Positions 55,722 through 60,924 of a stretch of 64,000 nt of DNA are shown piece by piece. Origin of the DNA: Microbotryum violaceum. Lineage: Eukaryota. The first letter of the stretch is position 1, and the number at the start of each line of letters is the position of its first letter. The DNA lies in contig LN717261.1 in the NCBI GenBank assembly GCA_001244265.2, positions 2,619,591-2,683,590 of the forward strand, given 5' to 3'. The notes below the pieces were generated by a model. That model searched no databases, was not told where the DNA came from, and saw only the letters and a list, made by a program, of their open reading frames with translations. The position numbers and the translations under genes are program-made.

Positions 55722-56189
55722 ATGGTGGTGGGGACCGAGTGGTGGGTACTTGCTGTGCGAGGTTCAAGGGGTTTGTTGTCTGGGAGATGTATGTTGTATT
55801 CATTTTGTGTGGACTCCAATGAAGCATTTAAGAGTGGACCGAAACCATGTTCCCGACGAGGAGCGCCGAGGAGCGCCAAGGAGCGCTGAAGACATATGCA
55901 CTTGCACGGGGGTTGCTGGGGTTGTCCGGTGCTGGAAGACCCCAACCATGTGCAGTGTTTTTTGAATTAACCCGAGTCCTATCGTGGACTGGTCCTAGTA
56001 CGCTCTACTCGGAGCGAGGCTCGATCACGAACTCTTTACGAACCAACTGAGAGGAGCGCCTGAGCTCGCGAGTGCCGAGCTGCCGCCCTTCCTACTCCTT
56101 CCTGCTCCTTCCCTCCCCTCCCCCTCCCCGTCTCTTTCTCTCTCCAATTCAATCTCCAACTCAAGCTCCAGCAGCAGCTCCGCTCAGCC

Positions 56190-59100
56190 ATGACGCAGCT
56201 GACCTTGCTCGAGGACAAGACGGTCGAGCAACTGAAGCAGATGGGCTTCCCCGCCGCTGATGCGGTCCGAGCTGTGCGGGTCAGTTCCATCATCGTCATT
56301 CCAGCTCGAGTCGCCGTCTACGAGATCGCAGTGAACCTGATCAGCTGCCCGAGCCTGTCTCTGAACTTCCTTTACAGCGCAAGGGCACTAATTTCGATCA
56401 TGCTTTGGATGCCCTTCTGAGTGGCGAAAACCTTGGAGATGATACCGACATCATCGTTGATACATCATCATCACCGGCACCAGCACCATCACCAGCACCG
56501 GCCGCATCTGCTGCGACGACAGCCAAGACGACCAGCGATGAACACCCGTACGCCGATGCCGACGAGGACAGATTACCTCCTCCTTATGGACCTAGCTCGG
56601 CATCCTTTGGCCCCCCTCAAGATTACCATGAAGCAAGACCTGCTTCGACCGCACTCGTCCCCTTCAAGTCTCGTAAGCGATTCGATTCGGGCACGTGCCT
56701 CTCCTCCTTCCCTCCGCACACTGACTCCCTCCTCCCCCCCTTGCATAGCCCGATCGAAGTGGTCCCCCGACGTTGATCTAACCCTCGACGAAGAGACCGA
56801 CCCCATCAAACCCTACGGCGGTTTCGACCCGCACCAACTCGCCGACGCGCTCGAACAATCGACCAAAGCAGGACGGAGATTCAGCCTCGGGCCGGCTTCG
56901 TCCTCTACTGCGACGCTCGGTCCCTCTTCGAACGATGAGGAGTCTGATTATCAGAGAGCGATTGCGATGAGCATGCAGGAGGCTGAGATGGCGAGTTCTA
57001 ACGCAAATATGGTCACTTCCACTGCGATGGGCACCGATACCAAGATGATCGGGCCCGACGAACAGCGCAAATCCGGGGCGGAGTCGACGCAGAACCGCGG
57101 GCTCGAAGCAGGCGACGATGATATCGAAAAGGCCATCTCGTTGAGCTTGGGCGATTTGAGGGATCAAATGGGACCGGGCGGAGCACCCATTGCGGCCATC
57201 AAGCCAGAGGATAGGATCCGACAACCCGATCAAGGGTGAGTCTCGGGAGGAGCTCGCTGCTTCGGAGCTCCCAGTCTGACCTCCGCCCGTTGGCTCCACA
57301 GACCCGTAATCGTACGATCGACCTCGGCGCTCCTCGGCCTTTTGTCGTCCTTCATCCAATGCCTCTACGCCGTTCCGACTTGGCGCAAAGCCGTGCTCGA
57401 GTTCAGGCCGAACCAATTCGACCTCGGATGCTCCAAATCCTTGCAGGGCATATGGGATGGCACCGAACCACCGGCTTTGGAGGGCACCGCAAGGGATGAG
57501 AAGGACCCGGTATGGGGTCAGTTGGTGTTCAATATTTGTGGTGAGACTGTTGGCCTGGCTGATCACAGGCTTACTCTCCCCGCAGCCCTCATCGCGATCC
57601 AACGCCTCTTTGCCCTGATGCAAGAAACGAAGCGTTCCTTCCTCCACATCACCGAAGCGACCCAAGTCCTCGACCCCAACGGCCTCCTCCTTCTACCTAC
57701 CCGCATCGATGCAGTTGAAGACGTATCGACCATGATCGAAGGTTTGATCAGCACCTTCCGATTGTATTCGACCCTCGACGCCAAGCCATTGCCTTTGGAT
57801 GAACGACCATTGGCTGTTCAAAAGGTGGTGCAGAGATTCTCGTTGTCGGGCAAGACGTTTAATAACAATCCGGTGTCGCTTGCTGAGCCGCTGGACGAGA
57901 ACATGGCGTACCCGATTGGGGATAGTATTGCCGTACGTGTATGAAAATTGGCCTGCGTCGACGGAACCTACACTCACAACGACCATCTCTGAAAATCACA
58001 GATCCTTCGGCTACGAGTCCCCACCTTCTTCGTCGGTGTCTCCGCGCCTACGTTGTACCAGTTTATTGACGCGAACCTCAATGAACTACCTTTACCCTCG
58101 ACAGGGAAACCCGCCTCGTTCAGCCTGATCACGCAATTCTCTCAATCGCTTATCGTACGATTGGATCGTTATGAAGAAGGCATCATCTCCTTGGATGACT
58201 TTGGCTCGTCTTCGATCCACGAAGCACTTTCCAAACACGGCGAGGCGAACGTGAGCGTAGGCGCCCCGAGGAAACGAAGTCGACGAAGCGTCAAGTTTGA
58301 AGAAACGCTTTGGTTGGATCGTTATGATGCTTCGAGGAGGCTTGAGATTGCGCAAAAGATAGCTCTGGTGTGTGATTTGAGGAGGCAGGTGGAGGATTTG
58401 GAGAGGATGAGGAACAGGTGGAGTAGCACTCTGGAGGGGAAGGAGGCGTTGGGGTTGATCAGGGACACGAGGGAGTATTTGAACAAGGACGAAGGAGAGG
58501 AGGATGCGGACGATGTAGGAAAAGAGAGGAGGAAGAGGTTGAAGATCGTCTATGAGAAGATTGAGCAAGAGGTACAGAAGAAGATTCGAGGGTGCGATGA
58601 GGTCATTGAGGAATTGAGGGAGACGATCGACGCAACGTTCGATAGGGACGAGTGGAAAAGAAGGGGACCTTATGAGTTGAAGGCCGTGTTGATGAGGAAT
58701 GGTTTGAATGGGAGGGGTAGTTCGTGGGCTGTGGTCAAGGAGGAGGGCAAGTGGTGGAGAATCAAGGATCTGGAGAAGGAAGAGGTGACTGGAAGGCTAA
58801 TGTCCCTGCTTTGAGTGAGATCATGGCTGATTGCGGTAGTTGCCACCCACAGGTCTCGTTCGAGCAAGTCGTCTCTGATCCGTCAGGTCTGATGATGAGC
58901 GCTGGCGCGACGTTGCTCTTTTACGATAACCCCAAATTTGCACACGGCAACGACGGCTCCGGAGCCGACACCTCCATCACGATCCCTTCCGTCCTTCGTT
59001 CCCTCATACTCCAAGACAACCACAATTTCGCTTCCGAATTACCGACCGAAATTGTCGAGACGTGGACGCCGCCTCTCGAACGCTTGCCACCGACACCTCC

Positions 59101-60726
59101 CATGGCGGAAGAAGAACCCTGGGTCGACCGACTCTCAGGCCCTGCGACGCCTCAGATGGAGCTTGCGCCTCCTTCACCGCCCCTCTGCGTGAGAGGCCCT
59201 CTCACCACTGCCGAAGACGTGATCGAGATCTTGCCCCCTACCGAGACGAATTTGACACCTTCTTCGCCTGTTGCTGTCGACCTTGCCATTGATGATGACT
59301 CAACGGTGACGGCCGACTTTAAGAACATTGTCGATTCGCCCAAAGCTATGGTGGCACGGGAGACTTCGATGTCTGCGGGTGCATCGGTCGTGGCTGTTGA
59401 TGAGCAAGCTGATGCACTGCGATTACGGGGAGGTGCCGCGGATGATGTCGAGATGGAGAGTGGAGAAGAGCAGGAATATTCCGATGATAAAGACTTTGAC
59501 GACGACGAGGAGGAAGTCGAATTGGGTCTACTGCAACCCATGTCGGCGCGGGATAAGGAATGGAACATTGATTTCGCGATTGGGAAGGTCAGTGGGAAAC
59601 CGGTGTGGTTGGATCCTCGGTCCCCACTCGAAAAGAGTCAGGTCGCATGCCCCAAGTGTGGGAAGACGATGACGATGTTGTTGCAGGTCAGTACCACTTC
59701 GCTGTTGGTCAGTCTCGGACGTGTAACTGATCTCTCCCTTCTTGGTAATGAAGGTCAATTCCCCGACGACACCCGACCGCATGCCGCAGCCCGATCACTC
59801 TTTGTCTTCGCGTGTCCAAGGAAGGAATGCTCGAGCAAGGATGCGGGCAAGGCGATGAAGGTGTGGAGGGTGCAGATGCCTAGTCCGAATGAGTTTTATC
59901 CGCATACTGAGGAGACGCAGAAGAGGAGGAGGGAATTGGGTGAGTAAGATTCGAATTGGGGAAAGACCTGAGACATGTGTGGTATGGCTGACTTGTGGGA
60001 ATTATGCGATGGTTCCTGCAGAAGCTGCATTGGACCCTACTACGGCTTTGGCGGGATCGGTAGATGCTGCGCCTTGCATGTGGCCAGAGTGGGATGTCAT
60101 ATGCGAGTCCGAACCTTATGAGGATTCCTACCTAGGTGAGTTGAGGAGACGTCCTTACGTTGCAAATGTTTGTGCTTGCTCACCATCGATCTTTGAGATG
60201 GAACAGAGTCGGATCGACAACCCACCGAAGGCGCCGCCGAAGACGCCGACTTGCCCGACACCCAATCCGGCGTCGACAAGGCGTTCCTCACATTCCAAGA
60301 ACGTGTCGAACGAGTGCCCAAGCAAGTACTGCGCTTCTATCGATTGCCAGGTGAAGAGGAACCTCAACCCTTATGGGCGAACAAGAAGAAGGTCACGTCG
60401 GATCAGGTGCAGCCTTGTTCGTTGTGTGGGGCCAAACGACAGGTCGAATTCCAGGTGAGTTGCGGACGTGAGCAACTATCAGAGGAAATGTCATGCTGAC
60501 GAGAGCTTGGGGTCTGAACTTATAATCCCAGATCCTCTCGACGCTACTTTCCTTCCTCAAAGACGACCACTTCTCCTTCGACTCGCTCCTCGTCTTCACC
60601 TGCGTCGAGAATTGCGCTATCCCCGACGCCGGATCGAACAAGAGCGGCTGGGCGGAAGAGGTGCTCATCTCTCAGGACTTTGATCAACACGGCGTTCGAT
60701 TCGGTCGTGCCGCCCCAGAGTATTGA
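56190..60726 (+). CDS. UBA + two UIMs + catalytically dead USP-like domain (Rup1/Ucp6-like), fused in frame via LRLRGG to a PDCD2/Tsr4-family domain, multi-exon
   Basis: VEQLKQMGF (UBA). DYQRAIAMSMQE and DIEKAISLSL (UIMs). FIQCLYAVP and YELKAVL...WWRIKD...LLFY (USP fold lacking catalytic Cys and His). GKVSGKPVWL, CPKCGKTMTMLLQ, RSLFVFAC, FQERVERVPKQVLRFY and CSLCGAKRQVEFQIL (PDCD2). Confidence 0.8.
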
Positions 60727-60924
60727 AATTCCATGCCATGAAATGAAGGAACAGGAATGGTCAAAGTAGTAAAAATATGGGAATAAAGAGGGAAGAGGCT
60801 AATTCGTGGAAAGTGGGGGGGGGGGGGGAAATAAAACTAAGGGGTGGACCGTGTCCGCCATAAAAGTGGGTGGAAGACGAAGGAATTGATCAAGAGAAAA
60901 GAAGTGTCTATAAGATGCTCGAGC

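Follow-up and report, generated by a model that had tools for sequence, protein, structure and literature searches.

One gene on the plus strand of Microbotryum violaceum contig LN717261.1 encodes two unrelated proteins in a single reading frame. It lies within the 64,000-nucleotide stretch of DNA analysed here (the window, whose positions are used throughout), and it specifies a dead scaffold of the USP25/28 type followed by the uS5 chaperone Tsr4/PDCD2, the two being joined by a disordered linker that ends in LRLRGG, a mimic of the ubiquitin tail. The gene corresponds to the annotated MVLG_06233 of Microbotryum lychnidis-dioicae p1A1 Lamole, whose product has 1264 residues (database protein P0002). 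The features of the locus are as follows.

56190..60726, + strand: fused gene, the equivalent of MVLG_06233, with 11 exons and 10 introns defined by transcript contig joints
56190-56279, 56378-56672, 56749-57235, 57302-57516, 57586-57932 and 58002-58784, + strand: exons 1-6 of the fused gene
58853-59686, 59754-59939, 60022-60135, 60207-60454 and 60532-60726, + strand: exons 7-11 of the fused gene
58853..59686, + strand: junction exon (exon 7) of 278 codons, containing the end of the USP domain, the linker, LRLRGG, the acidic leader and the start of Tsr4
56217..56410 (intron 1 included), + strand: UBA domain, residues 10-41 (Pfam E 2.6e-5 on P0002 and 4.4e-5 on the exon)
56576..56587, + strand: PPPY motif of the WW-domain ligand type, residues 97-100 (among orthologues, PP in 32/32 and Y in 30/32)
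56940..57155, + strand: two UIM-type motifs, residues 193-208 and 251-264 (Pfam E for the first, 3.6e-7 on P0002 and 1.1e-7 on the exon)
57306..58924 (introns included), + strand: dead USP25/28-type USP domain with a coiled-coil insertion, from an orthologue profile compared with USP25 and USP28
57306-57368, 58671-58736 and 58907-58924, + strand: Cys box, His box and last strand (ATLLFY) of the USP domain
58925..59416, + strand: linker, with the conserved helical stretch IPSVLRSLILQDNHNFASELP at 58982-59044 followed by a Pro/acidic disordered region
59417..59434, + strand: LRLRGG, the ubiquitin-tail mimic, residues 928-933 (exon residues 189-194), with the proposed scissile bond after 59434 (GG/A)
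59435..59515, + strand: acidic leader AADDVEME...DDDEEE, residues 934-960, the would-be N-terminus of a free Tsr4
59516..60726 (introns included), + strand: Tsr4/PDCD2 module with VELG, GKxxGxPxWL, a CxxC zinc ribbon and PDCD2_C

Transcript contigs from four sequencing runs were compared with the window, and those of runs X6 and X3 span the whole gene. The X6 contig (3978 nucleotides, 56125-60836) extends from 65 nucleotides 5' of the ATG at 56190 to 110 nucleotides 3' of the stop codon with all ten introns removed; seven of its eight listed pieces contain no letter that differs from the window, and the last contains two. The X3 contig, from a relative, is 3902 nucleotides long, has an identical intron structure with all ten introns removed, and differs from the window at about 3-10% of positions in its listed pieces. 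Neither contig has a splice joint within 58853-59686, and the acceptor and donor of exon 7 are placed by the spliced contigs at 58852/58853 and 59686/59687, respectively. Translation of this exon yields 278 residues that begin with the last USP motif (VSFEQV...ATLLFY), pass through a short helical stretch and a Pro/acidic run to LRLRGG, and continue through an acidic run, VELGLL, GKVSGKPVWL and CPKC to end in LLQ. An earlier note on this DNA, made from its letters, had described a stop-free exon carrying the last USP motif, a linker, LRLRGG at 59417-59434 and the start of PDCD2, and the translation confirms that description; the exon span that it gave, 58853-59690, was right at its start but ended 4 nucleotides inside intron 7, the true end being 59686.

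The open reading frame scan detects a plus-strand frame of 408 codons without a stop at 58721-59947. The raw frame looks open as far as 59947 because intron 7 (59687-59753, 67 nucleotides, GTCAGT..AG) is free of stops in the exon frame and is simply read through. An unrecognised intron or stop between the two domains, which the earlier note had named as a way in which the fusion might fail, is absent both from the contigs of two runs and from the open frame. Since the upstream frame lacks a stop, any messenger RNA that contains the USP end must continue into Tsr4. In the linker, the X3 contig carries indels of -3, +12 and +6 nucleotides, all in frame, whereas its indels 3' of the stop codon (+10 and -1 nucleotides) are not; the linker is thus under coding constraint.

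Across all six reading frames of the 64 kb window LRLRGG is encoded a single time, against an expectation of 0.059 from residue composition, and its chance expectation in a 160-residue linker is 7e-5. Its conservation was counted in an alignment of 32 full-length fused orthologues, which are related sequences and not independent events. Numbering residues outward from the proposed scissile bond, Gly-Gly at P2-P1 is found in 32/32 orthologues, Leu at P4 in 31/32 (with one Ile), Ala at P1' in 29/32 (the others being G, S and T), Arg at P3 in 28/32, Arg at P5, the position of ubiquitin Arg72, in 22/32, and Leu at P6 in 17/32, with Met in the rest. The departures from Arg at P3 are Ser or Met in the rust-type rows (P0057, P0060, P0061 and P0077, from rusts and one rust-like protein), where LRLSGG or LRLMGG takes the place of LRLRGG. 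Both flanks of the motif are gapped in the 32-row alignment, and the motif, [L/M]-R-L-R-G-G followed by a small residue, stands out as the sole strongly conserved island of the linker. The earlier note had asked whether the motif would be conserved among orthologous fusions whose linker had otherwise diverged, and the counts for Gly-Gly and for the P4 Leu answer that it is.

A wider count was limited to proteins in which the N-terminal landmark of PDCD2 is present and preceded by 75 residues or more; 23 proteins lacking the landmark and 8 whose upstream sequence was too short were left out. Within this set, [LIVM]xGG lies 38-66 residues before the landmark in 79 of the 81 covering proteins, one of the 79 (P0003) having been scored at a chance downstream VEMEGG although LRLRGG is also present. 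The own N-terminus of both exceptions, P0064 and P0073, falls at this place, and they are unfused. The P1' residue is never Pro and never bulky or basic, and the sole acidic count stems from the mis-scoring of P0003. The constant core is L-x-G-G followed by a small residue, the pattern expected of a site for a protease that reads the ubiquitin tail. The residues of that tail needed by such proteases are L73, G75 and G76.

The linker that precedes the motif is heavily gapped in the 32-orthologue alignment. Its helical stretch (58982-59044) also aligns to USP25, and two small conserved islands besides the motif are seen at positions 733-771 of P0004, namely ETVxDIxLDSPP (P742 in 32/32) and TPMSxD (P767 in 29/32). 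At about 59297-59299, relatives carry an 18-nucleotide in-frame insertion, which appears as the +12 and +6 nucleotides of the X3 contig and as a loose end in X1; at the matching place P0003, from M. intermedium, has an extra EVPPYE that creates a second PPxY in its linker, one that the window is without. In P0021, P0022, P0056, P0099 and P0100, proteins from metagenomes or sequencing runs, only 4-12 residues lie between the last USP strand (FAFYQ or FAFYH) and [LMS]-x-[LV]-R-G-G-A; since such short-linker forms exist, a long linker is not essential.

An AlphaFold2 model of the window's exon 7 product is devoid of secondary structure between residues ~72 and 238, where the predicted local distance difference test score (pLDDT) is 41-55. 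In a model of the Rhodotorula paludigena orthologue made with the 32-row alignment (mean pLDDT 71.9), the UBA, USP and PDCD2 parts are folded, while residues 717-823, which include the motif, fall below 50 and the motif itself is at ~30. Searches of Pfam returned no ubiquitin-family match on exon 7 at E<=0.1 or on four whole proteins at E<=0.01, and the sole match on exon 7 at E<=0.1 was a weak, sub-threshold zinc ribbon. The Pfam searches and the two AlphaFold2 models rule out that the linker conceals a ubiquitin domain or the decayed remains of one, and they uphold the earlier statement that no ubiquitin fold precedes the motif. The interpretation first placed on the locus is supported in part, as to the single frame, the conserved motif and the missing fold. 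Its further suggestion, that the upstream product could be conjugatable, is weakly placed, given the lack of a ubiquitin fold and an Arg at P5 in only 22/32 orthologues.

The upstream module is related to two deubiquitinases of known structure. A profile of the 32 orthologues matches USP25 (5o71_A, E 4.7e-40) and USP28 (8p1p_A, E 7.3e-31), with an alignment that covers the UIMs, the USP core on both sides of the insertion and a helical stretch after the core; the second UIM was read from the sequence, and both UIMs are covered by the alignment to USP25. The Pfam UCH family scores 28.7 bits on P0002, against a cut-off of 23.9, and is weak on the exons (E 0.0049). In the nucleophile column, the 32 rows hold S 22, G 3, V 3, N 1, A 1, T 1 and one gap, so that Cys is found in 0/31 aligned rows, the window having Gly. 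The catalytic His column holds S 18, T 10 and H 4; the His is confined to the four rust-type rows (P0057, P0060, P0061 and P0077), which have Val at the Cys position. By these columns, the module is a pseudoenzyme member of the USP25/USP28 family (peptidase C19) and not an active deubiquitinase. Self-cleavage by the USP-like domain was considered and is ruled out by the absence of the nucleophile Cys from 31/31 aligned rows. The earlier label of a Rup1-type protein suits the architecture of UBA, PPxY and UIM elements, but by sequence the module is a dead relative of USP25/28. Look-alike clusters in the ESM Atlas (USP28-like proteins and UBA proteins) have scores of 0.88-0.92 and are leads only; the one lead toward Rup1 consists of clusters of ascomycete UBA proteins of 619-654 residues, with a score of 0.88.

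The identity of the downstream module is provided by Pfam PDCD2_C, which matches P0002 with E 1.4e-24 over profile positions 1-110 of 111 and matches the downstream exons with E 1.5e-12 and 3.1e-5; the CPKC and GKVSGKPVWL of the Tsr4 zinc-ribbon half are encoded in exon 7. Two papers describe Tsr4/PDCD2 as the dedicated chaperone of uS5 in yeast and human (PMC6648895, PMC7736825). Unfused PDCD2/Tsr4 homologues begin ~6-44 residues before the V/I-E/Q-LG motif, several of them with acidic leaders, and GG/A lies 27 residues before VELG in the window protein. By this comparison, GG/A falls about where stand-alone Tsr4 proteins begin.

The fusion is widespread in the Pucciniomycotina. When longer proteins were searched with the exon product, 21 matches were obtained, 19 of them with 1073-1338 residues and belonging to Microbotryum, Rhodotorula, Sporobolomyces and Rhodosporidiobolus; PDCD2_C is in the precomputed Pfam list of 18 of these 19. 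A word-indexed search with the pseudo-USP found 18 matches, every one a fused Microbotryomycetes protein, and an exhaustive representative search found 57 matches at E<=0.001. Fused models are also present in Puccinia striiformis, P. triticina, Cronartium quercuum, Meredithblackwellia, Pseudohyphozyma and two further Microbotryomycetes species. The sequences indicate that the fusion spans at least the Microbotryomycetes and Pucciniomycetes (Pucciniomycotina), with the arrangement and the motif conserved, which is what the earlier note had proposed to look for in basidiomycete proteomes. No separate Tsr4 of M. lychnidis-dioicae was present among the 35 matches of a shorter-protein search with the Tsr4 part. 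Two models depart from the full-length form: the gene of M. intermedium is split by annotation inside PDCD2 (P0003, 1132 residues, and P0093, 149 residues), and in Rhodotorula graminis PDCD2 is modelled on its own (P0091), beginning with the Met of MQLRGG.

We propose that a cellular deubiquitinase cuts after the Gly-Gly of the linker motif, and we give this proposal an even chance. The motif island would be an endoproteolytic site for a ubiquitin-tail-specific protease, most plausibly a deubiquitinase of the USP class, and the cut would fall after Gly-Gly, as it does in ubiquitin-ribosomal protein fusions. Of the two products, the scaffold would end in ...LRLRGG, and Tsr4 would start with Ala and the acidic leader, its neo-N-terminal peptide being AADDVEMESGEEQEYSDDK. 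Lacking a nucleophile, the pseudo-USP is excluded as the protease. Because the ubiquitin globule is absent, we infer that the protease would be brought near by the scaffold, in the manner of yeast Rup1 and Ubp2, and its high local concentration beside an exposed linker would make up for the missing recognition of the fold. In the sections consulted of PMC2626285, PMC7653365 and PMC8424594, yeast Rup1 tethers the deubiquitinase Ubp2 to Rsp5; according to the first of these, the PPPSY motif of Rup1 helps to recruit Rsp5, and a Y135F mutant bound Rsp5 less. Cleavage is favoured by the continuous reading frame and the conserved fusion, by the specificity-like conservation of the motif, its predicted position in an exposed, disordered segment, the small and never-Pro P1' residue, and a putative cut at the place of natural Tsr4 N-termini, and by the absence of a separate M. 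lychnidis-dioicae Tsr4 from the 35 matches of the shorter-protein search; USP1, SDE2 and yeast Rup1 supply precedents. The most complete version of the proposal is a true cellular polyprotein, in which six ubiquitin residues without the fold suffice, the scaffold recruits its own deubiquitinase (a Ubp2 orthologue), Tsr4 is freed in a 1:1 ratio and the scaffold gains a free LRLRGG-COOH; this version we hold to be unlikely.

Several considerations weigh against cleavage. Two protein products are not among the results here, the case for a cut being built from sequence and models. Deubiquitinases normally owe much of their affinity to the ubiquitin globule, and without it the linker would be a poor substrate. 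The available text on SDE2 describes its cleavage as directed by the ubiquitin-like domain (PMC13572447). A conserved island is equally expected of a binding motif that is not cleaved. The Rup1 orthology of the scaffold, and hence the recruitment of Ubp2, is argued by analogy from architecture. An internal promoter may supply Tsr4 independently, the R. graminis model P0091 starts at the P6 Met, and a contig that crosses two genes neither proves a single transcript nor excludes an internal start. The conservation counts are likewise tempered by the relatedness of the 32 rows, by the proteins left out of the wider count and by the mis-scored P0003.

The main rival to cleavage, which we regard as doubtful, is that the fusion stays intact and LRLRGG serves as an uncleaved tail mimic, docking either in cis on the pseudo-USP or in trans on a deubiquitinase of the Ubp2 type. 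The motif would then act as a tether or pseudo-substrate regulator that keeps Tsr4 beside a ubiquitin-editing scaffold. The pseudo-USP has kept the USP25/28 fold while losing its nucleophile in 31/31 aligned rows, and it could still bind a tail; the conservation of L-x-G-G suits binding as well as cutting, and auto-inhibition of USP25 by a segment of its own is described in part of PMC8424594. However, binding alone requires neither a small P1' residue nor a position at the start of free Tsr4, the motif is undocked at a pLDDT of ~30 in the AlphaFold2 model of the full-length orthologue, and the 4-12 residues from USP strand to motif in the short-linker forms look too short to reach a cleft in cis. 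A predicted complex between the pseudo-USP (195-716) and the tail segment (762-824) of P0004 scored 0.00 and is not evidence either way. A different possibility, which strikes us as distinctly improbable, is that the two halves are expressed largely independently, with an internal promoter or start providing Tsr4 and the island serving its leader in removal or turnover. The P6 residue is often Met in the Sporidiobolales (MQLRGG, MRLRGG, MHLRGG), the Met of TPMSxD lies ~15-25 residues upstream of the motif, and models begin at both places, that of R. graminis at the P6 Met of MQLRGG and the catalogue entry P0090 at the TPMS Met. Such starts may nevertheless be artefacts, as gene callers take the first Met of a fragment, and Leu at P6 in Microbotryum and the rusts means that the Met is not universal. 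Furthermore, the upstream frame is free of stops, so that a full-length messenger RNA still codes for the fusion, and the in-frame indels place the whole linker under coding constraint.

Two explanations dispense with ubiquitin altogether. In one, RLRGG mimics the RG-rich N-terminal extension of uS5 (Rps2) and acts in cis as an auto-inhibitory pseudo-client at the client site of Tsr4, an idea we find very improbable. As reported in the portion of PMC13627120 consulted, Tsr4 binds an Rps2(5-28) peptide from that RG-rich extension, and Rps2 R11 is detected by an antibody against methylated RGG motifs; in the two proteins for which the distance was measured, moreover, no more than 27-36 residues lie between the motif and the Tsr4 fold. 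Yet the invariant core is L-x-G-G and not R-G-G, the rust-type rows having LRLSGG or LRLMGG, the motif has strongly acidic flanks whereas the client extension is basic, the tail of ubiquitin or NEDD8 is matched at all six positions, and the AlphaFold2 model shows no docking. In the other, neighbouring genes were merged by annotation and contig assembly, and LRLRGG arose by chance. Contigs from compact fungal genomes can indeed fuse overlapping neighbours, and the window has a 1-nucleotide discrepancy further downstream. Against this, the upstream gene has no stop over ~408 codons, the junction exon is free of introns in two runs, uninterrupted frames of this kind are annotated in over 30 species belonging to two classes, and a motif with a chance expectation of 7e-5 keeps its Gly-Gly in 32/32 orthologues. 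This explanation is barely credible, and we consider it close to refuted.

The proposed cut after Gly-Gly can be set beside several known systems. Precursors that are cut by deubiquitinases include ubiquitin-eL40, ubiquitin-eS31 and FUBI-eS30. These and the SDE2 precursor resemble the MVLG_06233-type fusion in having an LRLRGG or GG tail directly before an unrelated second protein, and the likeness extends to a partner in ribosome production, a cut (here proposed) after Gly-Gly and a small residue next. They differ in that a folded beta-grasp, absent from the MVLG_06233-type fusion, precedes their Gly-Gly, and in that their N-terminal part is a small modifier rather than a scaffold of ~930 residues. 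SDE2, as described in part of PMC13572447, is cut at its GG by USP5, and the residues of its tail that match those of ubiquitin are required. USP1 cuts itself at an internal Gly670-Gly671, and its new N-terminus sets the fate of the C-terminal fragment, according to excerpts of PMC3750636. It thus offers a diglycine site in a USP-family protein outside any ubiquitin fold; however, USP1 is active and cuts itself, whereas the USP of the fusion lacks Cys in 31/31 rows, so that a cut would need another enzyme, and cleavage of USP1 inactivates one protein, whereas cleavage of the fusion would release a second.

Viral papain-like proteases cut LxGG sites in polyproteins and also read the ubiquitin tail. 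Their sites resemble the motif in consisting of a bare LxGG and a small residue in a flexible inter-domain linker, but viral polyproteins carry their own active protease, whereas the fusion is the product of a cellular gene with a dead protease-like domain. The likeness to human USP25 and USP28 extends to the N-terminal UBA-like domain, the UIMs and the USP domain split by a coiled-coil insertion; unlike them, the fusion has no catalytic Cys, has no catalytic His outside the rust-type rows, and has as its C-terminal region the linker, LRLRGG and Tsr4. With yeast Rup1, compared by architecture, the scaffold has in common a UBA domain and a PPxY-type Rsp5 ligand motif. With Tsr4/PDCD2, the downstream module has in common PDCD2_C, the N-terminal zinc ribbon and the VELG and GKxGGxPxWL motifs. 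Elsewhere Tsr4/PDCD2 is a stand-alone protein of ~350-430 residues, and here it forms the C-terminal third of a 1264-residue product.

One discrepancy in the window sequence lies within the downstream module, as follows.

59761..59764, + strand: run of C, with 4 C in the window and 5 implied by the X2, X3 and X6 contigs and by the annotated protein

The extra C is visible in the X2, X3 and X6 contigs at the joint from 59690 to 59761, which has ATTC between its two sides, and five C are required by the stretch QVNSPDD of the annotated protein. When the window is spliced as it is (canonical intron 59687-59753), the first 1021 residues of the product agree with P0002, after which the frame is shifted and a stop follows at residue 1052; a fifth C makes the product identical to P0002. 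The discrepancy probably reflects an error in the homopolymer or a change from one assembly version to another, and, lying 327 nucleotides downstream of the motif, it leaves the finding unaffected. A second homopolymer, a run of ~12 G at 60815-60826 in the 3' untranslated region, is the place where the X6 contigs break.

No published description of the fusion or of the motif was found; in the main text of the Tsr4 domain survey PMC4275035, supplements not covered, neither 'UBA' nor 'basidiomycet' occurs. The gene models are already public, and the novelty lies in how the linker is read. If that reading is true, the fusion would be, to our knowledge, the first known cellular, non-viral case in which the ubiquitin tail alone marks a cut between unrelated proteins. 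Rhodotorula toruloides is genetically tractable, and the question is directly testable there.

A real cut would mean that a processing site has been kept across a whole fungal subphylum, would bear on how much of ubiquitin a deubiquitinase needs, and would add a fungal case of polyprotein-style co-expression. In the most complete version of the proposal, held above to be unlikely, the free ...LRLRGG-COOH of the scaffold could be bound by zinc-finger UBP domains, which recognise a free ubiquitin C-terminus, or it could plug the partner deubiquitinase as a product would; through such signalling by the free tail, the supply of the uS5 chaperone would become coupled to ubiquitin editing by Rsp5/Ubp2. 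Should the linker be uncut, the motif would still be a natural mimic of the ubiquitin tail. As a 'Rosetta stone', the fusion ties a ubiquitin scaffold of the USP25/28 or Rup1 type to the supply of a 40S ribosomal protein.

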